A stretch of DNA of 38,026 bases. Origin: Vulcanimicrobiota bacterium (lineage in GTDB: Bacteria > Vulcanimicrobiota > Vulcanimicrobiia > Vulcanimicrobiales > Vulcanimicrobiaceae). The notes below the pieces were generated by a model. That model was not told the origin of the DNA. It saw nothing but the letters and a program-made list of their open reading frames with translations, and did no database searches. The translations under genes and the position numbers were made by a program. The first letter of the stretch is position 1. The number at the start of each line of letters is the position of its first letter. Positions 3,510 through 16,526 of this stretch are shown here, piece after piece. The stretch spans positions 1 to 38,026 of the forward strand of contig PLCF01000076.1 in assembly GCA_003135555.1 (NCBI GenBank), given 5' to 3'.

Positions 3510-4734
3510 AACGACACCTCGTCGCGCGGCGGTGATCTTCGTCTTCATCACCGTCGCACTCGACATGATCGCGCTGGGCGTGATCGCACCGGTCTTCGTC
3601 CCGCTCATCGAAGGCTTCATGCACAACGACGTCGAGCGCGCCGCCGCGGTCGTGGGCGCGTTCGGCACGGTCTTCGCGCTGATGCAGTTCTTCTGGGCGC
3701 CGTTCCTGGGGGTGCTCTCCGACCGCTTCGGGCGCCGGCCGGTCATCATCGTGTCGAACCTCGGCATGGCCGTCGACTACGCGGTCATGGCGCTCGCGCC
3801 GAACCTCTTCTGGCTGTTGGCCGGCCGGATCGTCTCGGGCGTCACGTCGGCGAGCGCGACGGCGGCGGGCGCGTACATCGCCGATGTGACGCCGGCGGAG
3901 AAGCGCGCCGGTGCGTTCGGGATGATCGGTGCCGCGTTCGGGATCGGATTCGTGCTAGGCCCGGCGCTAGGCGGGCTATGCGGGCAGATCGATCCGCGGC
4001 TGCCGTTCTGGGTCGCCGGCGCGCTGTGCCTGCTCAACGGGATCTACGGCGCCTTCGTGCTGCCCGAATCGCTGTCACGCGAACATCGCGCCATGCGCTT
4101 CATGTGGGCCAAAGCAAATCCGCTCGGCGCGCTGCGGTTGCTGCGCAGCCATCCGGAATTGAGCGCGGTCGCGGCCTCGACGTTTCTGAGCACGCTGGCC
4201 GGGATCGTGATGCAATCGACCTGGGTGCTCTACGTCACCTTCCGCTTCGGCTGGGGGCCCGGCGCGACGGGAGCCTCGCTCGCGCTCATCGGGATCTGCT
4301 CGTCGGTCGCGCAGGTCGCAGTCGTCGGTGCGTACGTGAAACGCTTCGGCGAGCGCGTCGCGCTCTTTTCGGGGATCGCGTTCGGGGCGATCGCCCTGGT
4401 GATTTGCGGTTGGGCGCCCAACGGCTGGCTGTTCTGCGTCGGGATCGTCCCGCTGTGTCTATGGTCGCTGGCGCCCGCCGCCGGACAAGCGATGATGAGC
4501 CGCCGCGTGACGCCGCAGGAGCAGGGTGAGTTGCAAGGCGCCATCGGTTCGATACGCGGCCTCGCCGCGCTGTTCGGCCCGTTGATCTTTACCACCGCGT
4601 TCGCAATCGGGGTCGCCCGCGGCGTACCCGGCGCAGCCTGGTTTTTGGGCGCGGCGATCATCTGCGCGGCCGTACTCCCGGTCCTGCGCGAGCACGGAAA
4701 AGAAGAAGAACCCGCAGTCGCCGGCGCGGCGTAG
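3493..4734 (+). CDS. MFS efflux transporter, TetA/TCR (DHA1)-like
   Basis: Motif A GVLSDRFGRRPV, motif C GFVLGPALGG, about 12 TM segments. AAGGAG SD before GTG 3493, overlapping the TetR gene end. Confidence 0.9.
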   Translation: MQGAAETTPRRAAVIFVFITVALDMIALGVIAPVFVPLIEGFMHNDVERAAAVVGAFGTVFALMQFFWAPFLGVLSDRFGRRPVIIVSNLGMAVDYAVMALAPNLFWLLAGRIVSGVTSASATAAGAYIADVTPAEKRAGAFGMIGAAFGIGFVLGPALGGLCGQIDPRLPFWVAGALCLLNGIYGAFVLPESLSREHRAMRFMWAKANPLGALRLLRSHPELSAVAASTFLSTLAGIVMQSTWVLYVTFRFGWGPGATGASLALIGICSSVAQVAVVGAYVKRFGERVALFSGIAFGAIALVICGWAPNGWLFCVGIVPLCLWSLAPAAGQAMMSRRVTPQEQGELQGAIGSIRGLAALFGPLIFTTAFAIGVARGVPGAAWFLGAAIICAAVLPVLREHGKEEEPAVAGAA

Positions 4735-4740
4735 ATCTGC

Positions 4741-4772
4741 GAAAGAGGCCGCCGAATCGCTCCGGCGGCCTC
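4741..4772 (-). terminator. Intrinsic terminator-like hairpin between the converging MFS and SEC-C genes
   Basis: Perfect 10-bp stem GAGGCCGCCG (4745-4754) / CGGCGGCCTC (4763-4772) with an 8-nt loop, followed by a short TTTC tail on the minus strand. Confidence 0.65.
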
Positions 4773-4776
4773 GCAC

Positions 4777-5025
4777 TCACTCGCGGAAAGAAGTAGGCTC
4801 GCTCGACGCCGTCATAGCGGCCGCTGCGCATACAGCACTTCTTGAAACCGGCGGCCGGAGCCGCAAATGCAGGGATCGTTGCGACCGAGCTTTTCGATGA
4901 GCTCTTTGTCGCCGTGCACGAAGCGGTCGCCGCGCTTGACGTGCGTTTCGGACGGGTAGCCCTTGCGGCGCTTGCTAGAGCGCGTAAAAGCTGGGCAGTT
5001 CGTCGTAGTCGATGTCGTGTCGCAT
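4777..5025 (-). CDS. Small SEC-C motif (zinc-binding) protein split over successive frames; full 81-aa product needs three +1 shifts
   Basis: AGGAGGGT SD then ATG 5025. [14 protein letters not shown] is in one frame and KKCC in the +1 frame. Shift sites are TTT-T (4989-4986), TTT-C (4847-4844) and TTT-C (4789-4786). The final TGA at 4779-4777 lies just before the terminator. Confidence 0.7.
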
Positions 5026-5053
5026 GGTAGACCCTCCTGTGACAACGCCGCCT

Positions 5054-5082
5054 ACGCTACACGAAGCTGCCCGTAGCGTCAA
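5054..5082 (-). promoter_or_regulatory. sigma70-type promoter of the SEC-C gene (TTGACG-17-TAGCGT) with an overlapping 7-bp inverted repeat
   Basis: -35 at 5082-5077, -10 at 5059-5054. IR is ACGCTAC (5054-5060) / GTAGCGT (5073-5079). Confidence 0.6.
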
Positions 5083-5086
5083 GCCC

Positions 5087-5815
5087 TCATAGCTTCGCGG
5101 CGGCTTGGGCGTCGACGAACCAGCGTAGGTCGCCCGCGCGCGGGTGGACGAGTTGAGCGGGGTACAAGTCGGGTTGTTTTGGCCCGCCGAGCACGGCGCG
5201 CAACGCGTCTGCCTTCTCGGCGCCGCCAGCGGTGATCGCGACGTTGCGCGCGTCGTTGATCGCGTGCGGCGTCAGCGTGATCCGCCACTTGCCGAGCTGC
5301 GGAACGTAGTGCGCGATGCAGCGCCTTTCCCGGTCGATCGCCCCGACGGTGCCGGGGAACAGTGAAGCGGTGTGTCCCTCGGGCCCCATCCCCAGCAACA
5401 CGAGATCGAGCCGCGGGCGTTCGCCCAGTTGGAGGTGGAGCACCGCGTCGTAGTCAGCCGCCGCTGCCCCCGGATCGTCTTCGCCGCGCATGCGATGAAC
5501 GCAACCGCCATCGATCCCCAAGCGGTCGAGCAGCGTCTCGCGGTTCATCTTGTAGTTGGAATCCGGATCGCTCGGCGGGACGCAGCGCTCGTCACCGAAC
5601 CAAAAGACGACCCGGCCCCACTCGACGCTCGAGCGTCGCGGCTCGGCGACCAGCAGCGCATTGATCGCGCGCGGCGTCGAGCCGCCGGCTAGCGCGACGT
5701 GCGCAAGGTCGCGCTGCGCGAGCGTTGCCCGCACCAGCGCAACCACGTGGTCGGCCACTGCCGCGGCGAGCGCTGCCGAATCGGGCAGAACGGCGACGTG
5801 CTGACGCTCCGCCAT
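5087..5815 (-). CDS. pgl: 6-phosphogluconolactonase
   Basis: ALAGGSTP, FGDERCVPP and LLGMGPEGHTASLFPG motifs. Last gene of the OPP operon, start ATG 5815. Confidence 0.93.
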   Translation of the reverse strand: MAERQHVAVLPDSAALAAAVADHVVALVRATLAQRDLAHVALAGGSTPRAINALLVAEPRRSSVEWGRVVFWFGDERCVPPSDPDSNYKMNRETLLDRLGIDGGCVHRMRGEDDPGAAAADYDAVLHLQLGERPRLDLVLLGMGPEGHTASLFPGTVGAIDRERRCIAHYVPQLGKWRITLTPHAINDARNVAITAGGAEKADALRAVLGGPKQPDLYPAQLVHPRAGDLRWFVDAQAAAKL

Positions 5816-5823
5816 CGGCGCTG

Positions 5824-6828
5824 CTATCCGAGCAGCGGCGCCGCGGCGCGTAGCACCGACTCGAACAGCTCGTCGGGTTGCGTTTCCAGCACGGCGCGTT
5901 CGAGCAGCGACGCGTTGTCGATGGCGCGCAGCGGTACGAGCTGCGGTTCGCGTGCGTGTTCGCCTTCGGCCCAGAAGCGCACGACGCCGGGGTCTTCGGT
6001 GACCTCGCCGTGGTACCACGACTTCGCGCTGTCGAGGCAGATGCTTTGGACGCGGCGGATGTCGCCGACCCGCCGCCGTTCGAAGGTCACCGTGCGGCCT
6101 GCACGGTCGGTGAAGGCATCCCGGCCCGCCGCGGTCCAGCCCAAGCTGCCGGCCAGCCAAGCGCCGAGGTAAAAGGCTTCGGAATCGGATCCGCTCGCAA
6201 TGAAGAGACGGCGAATCGCGTACACCTCGGTCTGCAGCTGGGGATCGTCGAAGAAGTTTGCGATCACGTCCTGCCACGGCCGCAGCCGCATCCAAGCCAG
6301 ATCGCGCAGCTCCACCTCGGGATGCTCTTGATGGAACGCGATGATCTTCTCCATCGCCGATGCATCGCGAGCCGCGCCCGACGAGTCGAAGAGCAACGTG
6401 CTCACCGACGGCAATAAGGCGTAGAAGATCTCGCGGCTGGCTTCCTTCATCCCGCTCCACCACAGAATGGTCGGAACGCCGGTCTTGCTCAGCGCCGTCA
6501 CGTATCCGAGAATCGCCGGCGCGTCGATGCAGGACACGTCGAGCTGGACCCGTTCGCCTTGGACCGTGAACTCGACCGGTGCGGCGCGCTCGCCCGTTGT
6601 GAGGACGGCTTCGTTGCACTCGCCGGTGTGGTCGAGCACGATGGTCAACGACGGGTACTTGTCGCTGAGCATCGCGGTGCGCTCGAGGATCCAGGCGCGC
6701 CGGTCGGGGTCGTCGATCCAGACCACGAAGTTCATCGTCGAGGCCGTGAGCTTCGTGCGGTTGAGCTCGTTGCGGATCTCGTCGAGCGAGGTTGCAATCG
6801 TCGACGACTCGTTCATATCTTGCGCCAT
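5824..6828 (-). CDS. opcA: Glucose-6-phosphate dehydrogenase assembly/activator protein OpcA
   Basis: Lies between zwf and pgl. PTILWW, LLFDS and LRDLAWMRLRPWQ motifs are typical of OpcA. Confidence 0.85.
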   Translation of the reverse strand: MAQDMNESSTIATSLDEIRNELNRTKLTASTMNFVVWIDDPDRRAWILERTAMLSDKYPSLTIVLDHTGECNEAVLTTGERAAPVEFTVQGERVQLDVSCIDAPAILGYVTALSKTGVPTILWWSGMKEASREIFYALLPSVSTLLFDSSGAARDASAMEKIIAFHQEHPEVELRDLAWMRLRPWQDVIANFFDDPQLQTEVYAIRRLFIASGSDSEAFYLGAWLAGSLGWTAAGRDAFTDRAGRTVTFERRRVGDIRRVQSICLDSAKSWYHGEVTEDPGVVRFWAEGEHAREPQLVPLRAIDNASLLERAVLETQPDELFESVLRAAAPLLG

Positions 6829-8372
6829 TCGCGACCGTCCATCGCGAGCATGCGGTCTGCCGAGGGCGGTCCCTGGCTGCCGGCGTGGTAGTTGGGGAAG
6901 CTCTCGTCGGCGGTGTCCAGCCAGCGCTCGAGCAGCGGCATCACCTGCTCCCAGGCGTGCTCGACCGCATCCCAGCGCGTGAAGAGGGTCGCGTCTCCCC
7001 GCATGGCGTCGCCGATGAGCCGCTCGTACGCGGGCGCGGAAACGACCCCGAAGCCGGTGCCGTAATTGAAGTCCATCGAGACCGAGCGGATGTGCATCTT
7101 CGGCCCCGGCACCTTGGCGTTGAAGCGCAGCGAGACGCCTTCCTCGGGCTGGATCTTCATCACCAGCGTGTTGTTCTCGAGCGTGTCGCCGACGTCCCCG
7201 AAGAGCCGGTGCGGGATGGGCTTGAAGCGAATCGCGATCTCCGAGGTCTTGTGCGTCAAGCGTTTCCCCGAGCGCAGGTAGAACGGGACGTCGGCCCAGC
7301 GCCAGTTGTCGATGAGCAGCTTCACCGCAGCGTAGGTCTCGGTGTTGGAGTCGGGGCGAACATCGGGCTCCTCACGATAACCCGGCACGGGCTTACCGCC
7401 GATGGAACCGGCGTCGTACTGGCCCCGGGCGGCGTCGAGCGACAGCCGCCCGCGCTCGAACGGGCGCAGCGCGCACAGCACCTTGTACTTCTCGTCGCGG
7501 ATCGCGTCGGCAGCCGCCGAGACCGGCGGTTCCATCGCGACGAGCGCCAGCAGGTTCATGACGTGGTTCTGGATCATGTCGCGCAGCGCACCGGCATTGT
7601 CGTAGTAGCCGCCGCGTAGCTCGACGCCGACGGTCTCCGCCGCGGTGATCTGCACCGAATCGACGTAGCGGCGGTTCCAGAGCGGCTCGAAGATGACGTT
7701 GGCGAAGCGCAGCGCCATGATGTCCTGAACCGGCTCTTTGCCGAGGTAGTGGTCGATCCGGTAGACGTGCTTTTCCTCGAAAACCTTCGACACTTCGGCC
7801 TGCAGCGCGCGCGCCGAGTCGAGATCGGTCCCGAAGGGCTTCTCGATGATGATCCGCGTCCAACCCGCGGGGCTGTCTTTGGGACCTAAGCCGGCCTTGT
7901 CGAGCTGCTCGACGATCTGCGCGAAGACCGACGGCGGCGTGCTCAGGTAGAAGAGGCGGTTCCCGCCGGTGCCGAGCTCCTTGTCGTTGCGCTCGAGCCG
8001 CTGGCGCAATTTGTGGAAGCCGTTCGTGTCGTCGAACGTTCCCGAGACGTACGAGAGGTGCTTGGCGAAGTCGCTCCACAGCGGCTCCTTGGCCGGCCCG
8101 CTGCGCGAGAACTCGTCGATGCTCTTGTGCATTTCGTCGCGGAACTTGTCGTCGTCGTCGTCGGAGCGCGAGTAGCCGACGATTCCGTAGCTCGCCGGCA
8201 GGATGTCCTCGAGCCGCAGATTCCACATCGCCGGCATCAGCATGCGCGCCATGAGGTCGCCCGTCGCCCCGAAGAAGACGACGTTGCAGGGGTCGGCGAT
8301 CCGGTTGGTGGCGAGGCCTTTGCGCAGCGGGTTCGCCGTGACGCCGTCGCCGGGCCGTGCGGTGGTAGTCAT
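6813..8372 (-). CDS. zwf: Glucose-6-phosphate 1-dehydrogenase
   Basis: GATGDL, EKPFG, RIDHYLGKE and GALRDMIQNH motifs. ATG 8372 overlaps the gnd stop (ATGA). Confidence 0.96.
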   Translation of the reverse strand: MTTTARPGDGVTANPLRKGLATNRIADPCNVVFFGATGDLMARMLMPAMWNLRLEDILPASYGIVGYSRSDDDDDKFRDEMHKSIDEFSRSGPAKEPLWSDFAKHLSYVSGTFDDTNGFHKLRQRLERNDKELGTGGNRLFYLSTPPSVFAQIVEQLDKAGLGPKDSPAGWTRIIIEKPFGTDLDSARALQAEVSKVFEEKHVYRIDHYLGKEPVQDIMALRFANVIFEPLWNRRYVDSVQITAAETVGVELRGGYYDNAGALRDMIQNHVMNLLALVAMEPPVSAAADAIRDEKYKVLCALRPFERGRLSLDAARGQYDAGSIGGKPVPGYREEPDVRPDSNTETYAAVKLLIDNWRWADVPFYLRSGKRLTHKTSEIAIRFKPIPHRLFGDVGDTLENNTLVMKIQPEEGVSLRFNAKVPGPKMHIRSVSMDFNYGTGFGVVSAPAYERLIGDAMRGDATLFTRWDAVEHAWEQVMPLLERWLDTADESFPNYHAGSQGPPSADRMLAMDGREWRKI

Positions 8373-9265
8373 TCGGGTTTGATCGCGTGGCCGCCGAACT
8401 GATTGCGCAGCGCGGCGATGATCTTCGCGCTGAACGACTCTTCTTGGCGCGACACGAAGCGCGACATCAGCGACGCGGTGATGACCGGCGCGGGGACGTC
8501 CTCGTCGATCGCCGCCTGTACGGTCCAGCGCCCCTCGCCGGAGTCGGCGACCCAGCCCTTGACCTTGGCCAGGTCGGGGTCTTCCTTGAGCGCCAGCTCG
8601 AGCAGCTCGAGCAGCCACGAGCGCACGACCGAGCCGAAGCGCCAGATCGAAGCGAGCTGGTGCAGGTCGTAGTCGTACTCGGATTTCTCGAGGATCTCAA
8701 AGCCCTCGCCGTACGCCGCGAGCATCCCGTACTCGATGCCGTTGTGCACCATCTTCGAGAAGTGCCCCGCGCCGCTGGGTCCGACGTGCGCGTAGCCGTC
8801 TTTGGGCGCGAGGGTTACGAAAATGGACTCGACGCGTTTCACGGCGTCGTCGTCACCGCCGACCATGAGGCAGTAGCCGTTGGCCAGGCCCCACACGCCG
8901 CCCGACGTGCCCGCGTCGACGAACGACACACGCTTGTCCTTGCAGCGCAGGTAGCGCTGCTTGGAGTCGGTCCAGCGGGAGTTGCCGCCGTCGATGATGA
9001 CGTCGCCCGGCTGCAGGATTCCCAACAGATCGGTGATCGTGGAATCGGTGGGCTCACCGGCCGGCACCATGATCCATACCGCGCGCGGGGCGCTCAGCTT
9101 CGAGCCCAGGTCCGCCAGCGACGTCGCGCCGACGGCGCCGTCGCCGACCGAGCGTTGGACCGCGCCGGGATCGCGGTCGTACGCGATCACCTGATGCCCA
9201 CCACGGATCAACCGCGTTGTCATGTTCGCGCCCATGCGCCCCAACCCAATCATGGCGAGTTGCAT
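8369..9265 (-). CDS. gnd: 6-phosphogluconate dehydrogenase, decarboxylating (short YqeC/GntZ-like type)
   Basis: MQLAMIGLGRMG, IDGGNS, KMVHNGIEYG, DSGEGRWT and ALRNQFGGH motifs. Real start is ATG 9265. Confidence 0.95.
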   Translation of the reverse strand: MQLAMIGLGRMGANMTTRLIRGGHQVIAYDRDPGAVQRSVGDGAVGATSLADLGSKLSAPRAVWIMVPAGEPTDSTITDLLGILQPGDVIIDGGNSRWTDSKQRYLRCKDKRVSFVDAGTSGGVWGLANGYCLMVGGDDDAVKRVESIFVTLAPKDGYAHVGPSGAGHFSKMVHNGIEYGMLAAYGEGFEILEKSEYDYDLHQLASIWRFGSVVRSWLLELLELALKEDPDLAKVKGWVADSGEGRWTVQAAIDEDVPAPVITASLMSRFVSRQEESFSAKIIAALRNQFGGHAIKPE

Positions 9266-9266
9266 T

Positions 9267-9386
9267 CTAACGGCGCTCCGCTCGCGCTGCGCGCTCCCCA
9301 CGCGTCGCGTGGGCCCCCCGGGTCCGAGCTCGCAACGACCTGAGTTTACGCGGAAGATGCTGCTGCGCTCGCTCCATCACCATCAT
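9267..9386 (-). repeat. Intercistronic coding repeat, copy 1 (39-aa ORF MMVMERAQQH...AERR)
   Basis: 68-bp core 9272-9339 is 61/68 identical to 12231-12298. The ORF starts 2 nt after the tal-pgi stop and ends 1 nt before the gnd ATG. Confidence 0.8.
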
Positions 9387-15348: not shown

Positions 15349-16464
15349 GTGAATCCGCGGGTGAACGCGATCGAGCCGTCGCTGATTCGGACGATCGCGG
15401 CGAAGAAGAAGCCCGGTTCGATCGACCTGGGTCTGGGCGAGCCGACGTTGCTGCCGCAGCAGCGCTTCATCGAAGCCGCGACGCGCTGGGCCGCGGAGCA
15501 CGGCGTGCGCTACACCGTCAACGCCGGCGATCCGGCGCTGCGCGAACGCATCGCGGCACACTACGCCTACCCGGGGATGTCGGACGGCCGCCACGTCTGC
15601 GTGATGACCGGCTCTCAAGAAGCGGTCTACGTCGCGATCAAGACGTTGCTCGATCCGGCCAAGGACGAGCTGCTCGTGGTCGACCCGGCGTTTCCCGCGT
15701 ACGCCAAGATGGCGCAGCTCGAGGGGATCCCGTACCGCCACGTGCACATGCGGGCCGACGCCGACTTCCGCTACGATGCCGACGCGATCCTCGACACGAT
15801 CGACCGCGCAACGCGCGTGATCGTGGTGGCTTCGCCCGCGAATCCCACCGGCCGCGTGCTGCGCGACGCGGATGCCCGCCGCCTCGCCGAGGGACTTTTG
15901 GCGCGCCCTGGCCCGCCGATCTGGGTGCTGCAGGACGAGATCTACCGCGAGCTGACGTACATCGACGACCCCGGTTACATCGCGCAATACTATCCGCACA
16001 CGATCGTCGCGAACTCGCTCTCGAAGTCCAACGCGCTGACCGGGATGCGCATCGGCTGGCTGCTCGCGCCCGACGCCGCGATCGCCTCGCTGATCAAGAC
16101 CCACGCTTGGATCACCTCGACCGCAAGCGCCTTCGGCCAGCGCGTCGCTTACGAGATCTTCGGCGAGCCCGGCGCCATCACCGAGCAGTCGGCCTGGTAC
16201 CGCGCGCAGCACGCGCGCGTCACCGAGGTGCTCGATGCGAGCGGTCTGCGCTACGTCCCGATCGACGGCGCGTTCTACGTCTGCGTGAAGCTGCCGCACG
16301 GCGACGACTCGCTCGCCGCTGCGCTCGACCTCGTCGAGAACCGCGGCGTCGTCGCGATCCCCGGCCGCATCTTCGGCGACTCGCTCGAAGGCTGGCTGCG
16401 CCTCAGCTGGGTCGCCCCAATCGAAGACGTGGAGGAAGGCTTGCGCCGAATCGCCGCAATTTAG
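15349..16464 (+). CDS. PLP-dependent aminotransferase class I/II (possibly DapC role by context)
   Basis: LGLGEP, SPANPTG, DEIY and SLSKSNALTGMRIGW (PLP lysine) motifs. Immediately downstream of dapD. Confidence 0.88.
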   Translation: MNPRVNAIEPSLIRTIAAKKKPGSIDLGLGEPTLLPQQRFIEAATRWAAEHGVRYTVNAGDPALRERIAAHYAYPGMSDGRHVCVMTGSQEAVYVAIKTLLDPAKDELLVVDPAFPAYAKMAQLEGIPYRHVHMRADADFRYDADAILDTIDRATRVIVVASPANPTGRVLRDADARRLAEGLLARPGPPIWVLQDEIYRELTYIDDPGYIAQYYPHTIVANSLSKSNALTGMRIGWLLAPDAAIASLIKTHAWITSTASAFGQRVAYEIFGEPGAITEQSAWYRAQHARVTEVLDASGLRYVPIDGAFYVCVKLPHGDDSLAAALDLVENRGVVAIPGRIFGDSLEGWLRLSWVAPIEDVEEGLRRIAAI

Positions 16465-16473
16465 CCGTGACCT

Positions 16474-16526
16474 TTGTATCATCGCTTTGACACAATCGGG
16501 CGGTTTGTGCTAGCTTGTTGATACAA
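16474..16526 (+). promoter_or_regulatory. Two 22-bp palindromic YtrA/GntR-type operators overlapping a TTGACA-18-TGnTAGCTT promoter
   Basis: TTGTATCA-N6-TGACACAA (16474-16495) and TTGTGCTA-N6-TGATACAA (16505-16526). -35 at 16487-16492, -10 at 16511-16516. Confidence 0.7.

Follow-up and report, generated by a model that had tools for sequence, protein, structure and literature searches.

To our knowledge, very few bacterial cellular genes are known to employ programmed +1 frameshifting, and the textbook case, prfB, which encodes release factor 2 (RF2), relies on one site. The gene described here lies on the minus strand (5025..4777) of a 38,026-nucleotide stretch of DNA from a Vulcanimicrobiota bacterium (contig PLCF01000076.1, assembly GCA_003135555.1), hereafter referred to as the window, and gives an 81-residue product with a SEC-C motif if it is read with three +1 shifts. 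Each of the three sites (S1 at 4989-4986, S2 at 4847-4844 and S4 at 4789-4786) consists of an in-frame TTT followed by C or T. The gene represents a family of small basic proteins, spread over many phyla, that needs three or four shifts within about 80 codons, all at one tetranucleotide, UUU_Y (Y, pyrimidine). We place the probability at roughly 0.8 that the full product arises by selected +1 slippage of peptidyl-transfer RNA (tRNA)-Phe at these serial UUU_Y sites.

The family resembles prfB (CUU_UGA_C) in the proposed +1 slippage in the P site onto a U-rich overlapping codon while a 0-frame codon that is presumably read slowly stands in the A site. Its commonest internal site, UUU_UGA_C (37 events), is itself prfB-like, and two loci (L034 and L035) may carry CTT_TGA itself. 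Conversely, UUU_U replaces CUU_U in a minority of prfB genes, as described in a section of a review (PMC5009743). The two systems differ in architecture: prfB combines one site with an upstream Shine-Dalgarno-like stimulator and an RF2 feedback loop, whereas the family has three to four sites, many of them with sense codons in the 0 frame (CAA, CGA, CAG, CCG and TAC), and neither a Shine-Dalgarno-like nor a structural stimulator was found.

Closer in sequence are the UUU_Ynn sites of the UUU-CAA constructs in Salmonella, of YopN-TyeA in Yersinia and of PA-X in influenza A virus (UCC_UUU_CGU), which, as far as excerpts of the sources describe them (PMC3617221, PMC5009743), share both the tetranucleotide and tRNA-Phe with the family. 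These are single sites yielding a minor product, or artificial reporters, whereas in the family the main conserved product relies on sites in series. Several +1 shifts within one coding sequence are otherwise encountered in Euplotes nuclei and in some mitochondria, the numbers cited in the same review being at least two for a gene of Euplotes and 10 and 12 for genes of mitochondria (PMC5009743). In those systems, however, shifting reflects a genome-wide peculiarity of termination or decoding, whereas the window bacterium reads UUU_C normally in ordinary genes, so that the behavior seen here is either gene-specific or of low efficiency. A literature search, outside which one relevant survey fell, returned no paper about this family and none connecting SEC-C proteins with frameshifting or with RNA repair. 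The slippery tetranucleotide is already known; a conserved cellular gene of bacteria that has to use it three to four times is apparently new, no printed account of one having been found.

Frame structure of the gene and its close relatives

The gene in the window is divided among three frames, all on the minus strand. Segment A (4987..5025, frame A), consisting of the ATG and 13 codons, specifies an acidic N-terminal peptide ending in ..PSF. It leads into S1 (4986..4989), a TTT_T at which the 0 frame continues with TAC and meets TAG three codons on, while the +1 frame reads ACG CGC TCT AGC AAG (T-R-S-S-K); a same-genus locus (L004) carries TTT_C at this position. Segment B (4845..4985, frame B) comprises 47 codons and forms the conserved core. 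At S2 (4844..4847), TTT_C is followed by CAA in the 0 frame and by AAG AAG TGC TGT (K-K-C-C) in the +1 frame, which opens Segment C (4787..4843, frame C), 19 codons homologous to the in-frame C-termini of contiguous relatives. The last site, S4 (4786..4789), is a TTT_C with CCG next in the 0 frame and CGC GAG TGA (R-E-stop) in the +1 frame. With all three shifts made, the product finishes back in frame A (4777..4785), with the codons for R-E and a TGA stop at 4779-4777; without a shift at S4, the frame runs for 43 codons through a hairpin into a convergent transporter gene.

The SEC-C motif (Pfam PF02810; 4826..4883, residues 48-66 of the shifted product) is broken by the skipped base 4844. 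The original prediction, made from the letters of the window, held that the motif is cut at TTT-C with KKCC waiting in the +1 frame, that this frame is the selected one and that the cut works as an on/off switch for zinc. Scoring of both versions bears out the first point: against a gathering threshold of 20.4 bits, the unshifted open reading frame (ORF) reaches 27.0 bits over positions 1-14 of the 19-position profile and has two Cys only, and the shifted reading reaches 38.2 bits over positions 1-19. All four ligands at the canonical spacing, C-x-C-x8-C-C, occur only in the +1-shifted reading. The ORF reported by the gene caller (4812..5045, TTG to TGA, 77 residues), whose identical protein is public as P0001, is a chimera of an out-of-frame N-terminus, the true core and an out-of-frame tail.

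Close relatives exhibit the same organization. Among 40 related genomes searched in full, 24 of them from other members of the same genus, the gene was found at seven places in six of the 24 (G023, G014, G015, G003, G004 and twice in G012) as well as in G032 and G037, which belong to another family of the class, and every relative found displays the three-frame split. Across the seven same-genus loci, variable sites of Segment B fall on codon positions 1, 2 and 3 as 9/5/36. For Segment C, these loci give 2/5/10 in the register reached by the +1 shift, as opposed to 10/2/5 without the shift. The peptide of Segment A is kept in frame A in all seven, with a whole-codon indel, the core frame lacks any start codon in five of the seven, and the +1 frame after the Phe of S4 reads RE-stop in seven of seven.

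The extra bases also recur in independent assemblies. Contigs of four further public runs (X4-X7, from four studies) match 4650-4986 and 4957-5150 with zero differences and zero gaps, all three sites being covered, and a contig of a divergent strain is likewise free of an indel at S2. As a separate observation, the summed depth of metagenome contigs rises three- to fourfold at window positions 4956-4998, the most conserved stretch of the gene, and many contigs begin or end there (e.g., at 4986); apparently, several organisms in the same peat samples share near-identical words in this interval.

The C-x-C-x8-C-C arrangement (PF02810) is shared with the SecA C-terminal metal-binding domain, YecA and YchJ; the window protein differs from these in standing alone, with 81 residues and a conserved basic core of its own at the N-terminus. 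The SecA domain is reported to bind zinc or iron, SecB and ribosomes (10.1101/613315). NCBIfam models for YecA (UPF0149) and YchJ-like proteins, names under which some sources list relatives, remain far below their cut-offs (best scores 36.4 bits against 158 and 22 bits against 120), with matches covering the SEC-C end only, and a search of family models revealed none dedicated to the frameshift family. A protein atlas search returned other small SEC-C clusters only. An AlphaFold model of a contiguous homolog (P0012, built with 55 relatives) is of low confidence, with a mean predicted local distance difference test score of 61.8 (76-81 over the motif) and a predicted template modeling score of 0.37.

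Recurrent sites across phyla and the UUU_Y rule

A protein search with the shifted reading retrieved 1126 relatives of 44-140 residues, of which the best 120 were inspected and 111 contain the core. Among these 111 called proteins, 18 read through both internal sites without a break, 58 terminate or leave the frame immediately past ..CC..G-x-F, and the remaining 35, including proteins from Rubrobacter, Acidobacteriota and a complete Sphingomonas genome, carry an out-of-frame tail after ..R-R-F. A scan of species-representative genomes (one per species) confirmed 597 of 600 candidate stretches. The 80 loci considered below are the best 80, and 73 of them were analyzed by frameshift-aware alignment, the other seven lacking the exact core word used as key. 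The family is present in Planctomycetota, Verrucomicrobiota, Acidobacteriota, Pseudomonadota, Gemmatimonadota, Chloroflexota, relatives of Cyanobacteria, Deinococcales and others. The broken gene occurs in cultured isolates (Chthoniobacter flavus Ellin428, L081; Massilia pinisoli, L044; Hansschlegelia plantiphila, L087) and in the complete chromosome of Stieleria magnilauensis (L035). At least one internal shift is needed in 65 of the 73 loci (none in eight, one in 62 and two in three), and all of these shifts are +1. Two sequences from a plasmid collection (CP114562.1 and CP114554.1, Candidatus Manganitrophus) contain unannotated copies matching only as far as the Phe of S2, which fits gene callers missing the broken gene; other plasmid matches are the ends of YecA and SecA.

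Because windows between ORF boundaries were too wide to locate the shifts (median 46 candidate codons), placement was based on homology, within two BLOSUM units of the optimum. This approach yielded 79 +1 events in the loci from other phyla, the window and its relatives. In 72 cases an in-frame TTT can be positioned immediately before the shift, invariably with C or T as the fourth base; the next codon in the 0 frame is TGA in 37, CAA in 24, CGA in seven, TAG in two and TAA in two.

The events concentrate at recurrent sites. At S1, an ATG lying 7-20 codons upstream of the first conserved Phe, and open to it, is in frame A in 64 of 80 loci, compared with 6 and 10 in the other frames; frame A lies one base behind the core frame. 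Across the family, what supports S1 is start-codon placement only. Eight loci (L040, L051, L063, L066, L072, L080, L100 and L038) have two consecutive TTT_Y steps here (F-F-E, in a T run of about 7 followed by C) and need four shifts, and T runs of this length might allow polymerase slippage.

S2, between R-R-F and K-x-C-C, is used in 26 loci, 17 of which belong to other phyla, and 25 of the 26 have K-x-C-C in the +1 frame, a pattern far outside what chance would produce. This finding, together with third-position variation peaking in the +1 frame past S2, bears out the second point of the original prediction. In 19 loci, entropy past S2 is 0.83/0.59/1.25 by codon position of the +1 frame, as compared with 0.29/0.16/1.28 upstream in the 0 frame. 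The 0-frame tail after S2 is not conserved: it ranges from 0 to 69 codons and has a pairwise identity of 0.43, against 0.59 in the +1 frame. Neither of the objections foreseen for the original prediction holds, since homologs do carry K-x-C-C in the +1 frame and the extra base recurs in independent assemblies. An uninterrupted Phe-Lys frame bridges the junction in 52 of the 73 loci (TTC-AAR in 43, TTT-AAR in nine).

S3, between G-x-F and D-G, follows the complete motif and is commoner than S2, accounting for 44 of the 79 events. In 22 loci it is bridged by an in-frame Tyr, Phe (TTC), His or Leu codon and then GAY or GAA. S4 corresponds to the last Phe, where TTT is followed by TAG in 33 loci, CAG in 12 and CCG in seven. 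In nearly every locus, the +1 frame after this Phe reads RE, RD, REKD or R and then stop; loci with TTC or TTT_A as their last Phe codon read RE, RD or R and stop without leaving the 0 frame. Since shifted and unshifted loci arrive at the same ending, the true C-terminus is ..Y-F-R-[E/D]. An extra lineage-specific site before the motif (TTT_TAG, between K-R-G-F and R-L-V-H) is present in two relatives.

The prevalence of S3 bears on the zinc switch. In the window lineage, the unshifted product does have two of the four ligands and presumably would be unable to bind zinc. Most relatives shift elsewhere, after a complete motif, and the switch is therefore a local consequence and not the general logic of the family. 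What is conserved appears to be the dependence on several UUU_Y shifts rather than the interruption of the zinc site.

These observations can be condensed into a decoding rule without any fitted parameter, in which reading starts at the upstream start codon and shifts +1 whenever an in-frame TTT precedes C or T, success being a complete family-type product ending at a stop. The UUU_Y rule decodes 56 of 73 loci from other phyla and nine of nine own and related loci, as compared with 2 of 73 and 0 of 9 for standard reading. A UUC_Y control decodes 4 of 73. Allowing any fourth base (UUU_N) reduces the yield to 45 of 73, and an in-frame TTT before a purine is therefore read normally. Under the UUU_Y rule, three shifts are used in 47 loci, two in nine, four in eight and one in one. 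Over the 192 sites used, the 0-frame codon is TGA in 42, TAG in 33, TAA in two, CGA in 27 and CAA in 23. That this codon takes the form YGA, YAA or YAG, i.e., a stop or its C variant, follows from the residue after each Phe being E, K, D or R. Furthermore, in G-[F/Y]-P-S-E, a position where the frame must be held, Phe is encoded by TTC in 42 cases vs. TTT in five and Tyr by TAC in 13 vs. TAT in 12 (Fisher p 0.0009), and UUU_C is avoided there.

Proposed ribosomal slippage and competing explanations

In the proposed mechanism, tRNA-Phe (anticodon GAA) sitting on an in-frame UUU would re-pair with UUC or UUU one base downstream. S1 would join the 13-residue acidic N-terminus to the core, S2 would join C-x-C to the last two ligands in K-K-C-C, and S4 would bring in R-E-stop just before the hairpin. 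A ribosome that fails to shift at S2 would make half a metal site, probably as a by-product. We infer that the shift would be ribosomal rather than occurring at the RNA level, that full-length protein would be made and that its output would be gated by the reading speed of the 0-frame A-site codon, which is a stop, CGA, CAA or CAG at most family sites.

The signature of the sites, namely UUU and then a pyrimidine, with UUC and UUU-purine left unshifted, is as tRNA-Phe re-pairing predicts. UUU_Y has been described as intrinsically prone to +1 slippage in bacteria in a passage of the review (PMC5009743). With a UUU-CAA construct in Salmonella, whose product was sequenced by Jager, Nilsson and Bjork, peptidyl-tRNA-Phe was observed to slip +1 when Gln-tRNA is low, and slippage in the P site is likewise induced when tRNA-Phe lacks the ms2 or ms2io6 group at A37, as summarized in an excerpt of that work (PMC3617221). 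S2 in the window is UUU_CAA.

Several observations weigh against serial slippage. Among the public sequencing runs searched, no RNA run was listed as carrying the locus, and the shifted product is a prediction from DNA. Seven of the 79 events fall off TTT, with CTT_TGA possible in L034 and L035, CTG_C in L033 and L085, and no clear placement in L037, L059 and L097. One locus (L062) needs a +1 and then a -1 event. Five of the 35 called proteins with 0-frame tails (P0017, P0028, P0080, P0092 and P0099) regain the C-terminal frame six residues past S2 (Q-x-x-L-x-x), a misfit with a simple obligatory +1 shift at that site; for these and for L062, a compensating deletion or another decoding path could be involved. 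The rule leaves 17 of 73 loci undecoded. Five of these contain an in-frame TTT_C at G-F-P-S-E that must stay unshifted; the rest are the non-TTT sites, the locus with a -1 event, one locus truncated at the end of its contig and four more.

Further difficulties concern efficiency. Across 1986 long ORFs of this genome there are 2085 in-frame TTT_C, and TTT_CAA shows no sign of avoidance (53 observed vs. 31.5 expected); such frequency in frame means that the tetranucleotide alone cannot be an efficient site in the window organism. The 0-frame A-site codons of the window gene have genomic frequencies of 17.6 (TAC), 7.9 (CAA) and 35.3 (CCG) per 1000, so only CAA is fairly rare, and TAC at S1 and CCG at S4 are common codons. 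RNAalifold returned zero pairs around S2 (19 loci) and, around S3 (43 loci), three invariant-type pairs without covariation, giving no stimulator; no Shine-Dalgarno-like element is visible by eye upstream of the shift sites. With three low-efficiency shifts in series, hardly any full-length protein would result. A stimulator in cis is dispensable at many +1 sites, however, and its lack lowers the claim of high efficiency, not that of the occurrence of the shift. Either a stimulator acts unseen, for instance the nascent chain or the protein product, or full-length protein is scarce unless A-site decoding is slow.

A special quadruplet-reading tRNA was considered and rejected, as ARAGORN finds two ordinary tRNA-Phe(GAA), tRNA-Gln(UUG) and tRNA-Gln(CUG) and none with a UUUY anticodon. 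Genome-wide quadruplet reading of TTT is likewise ruled out, because the neighboring MFS-type ORF and the 1986 long ORFs read TTT_C in frame. On other contigs of the same genome, ARAGORN also lists a call with the 4-base anticodon ttag (16430-16525, 96 nucleotides), a CTA tRNA labeled Pyl and a tRNA-SeC (TCA), none of which reads UUUY.

One rival explanation, quite unlikely, is that the 0-frame products are themselves functional and that the full-length protein is dispensable. The acidic leader peptide, only 16 residues long in the window, and the truncated forms would serve as regulatory leader ORFs, for example for downstream RNA-repair genes in other lineages, and the later frames would look conserved on other grounds. 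Most loci have a 0-frame stop at S3 (TGA, 37) and S4 (TAG, 33), giving defined short products, an RNA-repair gene follows immediately on the same strand in 13 of 80 loci, as expected of a leader, and the low efficiency of serial shifting argues against much full-length product. Leader ORFs, however, do not account for third-position variation in each successive frame, nor for the fact that the shifted frames keep K-x-C-C, [DE]-G and R-[ED]-stop from phylum to phylum; together, these observations indicate that the shifted frames are translated and under purifying selection. In addition, five of seven loci of the window genus provide no separate start codon for the core, and the window copy stands alone between the hairpin and unrelated genes.

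Correction at the RNA level, by polymerase slippage or U deletion at T runs to give an uninterrupted mRNA that is translated normally, is quite unlikely. Every site is a T run of three or more, and in some relatives the run at S1 is longer and contains a pair of successive TTT_Y steps, eight loci using four shifts. The runs in the window, however, are only T4, T3 and T3, and transcriptional slippage needs much longer homopolymers than these. A polymerase on T3 would also ignore the next base, whereas the fourth base is strictly C or T and TTT_A and TTT_G remain unshifted (45/73 vs. 56/73 under the two rules, and TTT-AAR in nine loci).

That the extra bases are sequencing or assembly errors, or the marks of a decaying pseudogene, as two to three frame breaks within 250 bases of a metagenome-assembled genome (84% complete, 98 contigs) might suggest, is extremely improbable and already refuted as far as sequence data can do so, given the identity of all three sites in the four further runs, the same breaks in other species, families and phyla, including cultured isolates, and coding-type selection on both sides of each break.

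Flanking elements, gene neighborhood and possible function

Upstream of the gene, a Shine-Dalgarno-like GGAGG (5033..5037) precedes the ATG at 5025 by 7 nucleotides, and AAGGAGG with the ATG in the common frame A is kept in the same-genus loci L002-L007. A possible -35 hexamer, TTGACG (5077..5082), and a possible -10 hexamer, TAGCGT (5059-5054), 17 nucleotides apart, were noted by eye. The promoter call is weak, and a consensus promoter scan of the window reported none at these hexamers, while TTGAC(G/C) with TAnnnT about 17 nucleotides downstream is seen again in same-genus loci. Five nucleotides past the TGA, a GC-rich hairpin (4745..4772; folding energy -29.8 kcal/mol, z -3.5) is followed by TTTC and is likely a terminator shared with the convergent MFS-type gene. 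It is absent from the list of a consensus terminator scan because its T tail is short; a hairpin of other sequence occupies the same place in L002, L003, L005 and L006, as judged by eye.

Within the window, the gene stands alone between this hairpin and unrelated genes. Translations of the minus-strand ORFs upstream of it (5087-9301), read by eye, resemble a pentose-phosphate cluster composed of 6-phosphogluconolactonase, an OpcA-like protein, glucose-6-phosphate dehydrogenase and 6-phosphogluconate dehydrogenase. Elsewhere in the window, a 315-residue minus-strand ORF (882-1829) has a hydrophobic N-terminus and contains the motif ..STAVNSSRSNIKNN.. twice plus a related ..NLNSSRSNIY...

Pfam annotation of 145 flanking ORFs of the 80 loci placed an RNA-repair gene directly downstream on the same strand in 13 loci: Hen1 in six, an RNA ligase (PF09414) in four, RtcB in one and a P-loop kinase (AAA_33) in two. 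An ADP-ribosylglycohydrolase occupies this position in one locus, and upstream neighbors include an RNase-J-like gene, NIF-type phosphatases and a YgjP-like peptidase. At the window locus itself, no adjacent RNA-repair gene was seen, the neighbors (translations read by eye) being the pentose-phosphate cluster and the MFS-type transporter. RtcB is present on another contig of the same genome (C83), and Hen1_L was not found in this 84% complete assembly. The family may thus have a ribosome- or RNA-associated role tied to RNA repair.

A more specific proposal, offered tentatively, is that the family acts as a frameshift-gated sensor, the full-length protein being made only when a delay in reading the next codon makes ribosomes pause with tRNA-Phe on UUU_Y, and this zinc-knuckle product then acting with Hen1/Pnkp, RtcB and RNA ligase. 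Such pauses could result from ribotoxin cleavage of tRNA, from starvation for amino acids, from a shortage of release factors or, under iron scarcity, from under-modified tRNA-Phe. A series of sites would steepen the response, and the gene in the window would report translational stress.

The family has practical implications as well: public databases and gene callers hold hundreds of wrong chimeric or truncated proteins belonging to it, and it offers a compact natural system for studying why UUU_Y slips. According to a 2016 review (PMC5009743), 'hungry codon' frameshifting was not known to be the specific source of any trans-frame protein; if the sensor proposal is true, the family would supply the first. 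The link to RNA-repair operons suggests a route by which cells may sense damage to the translation apparatus.

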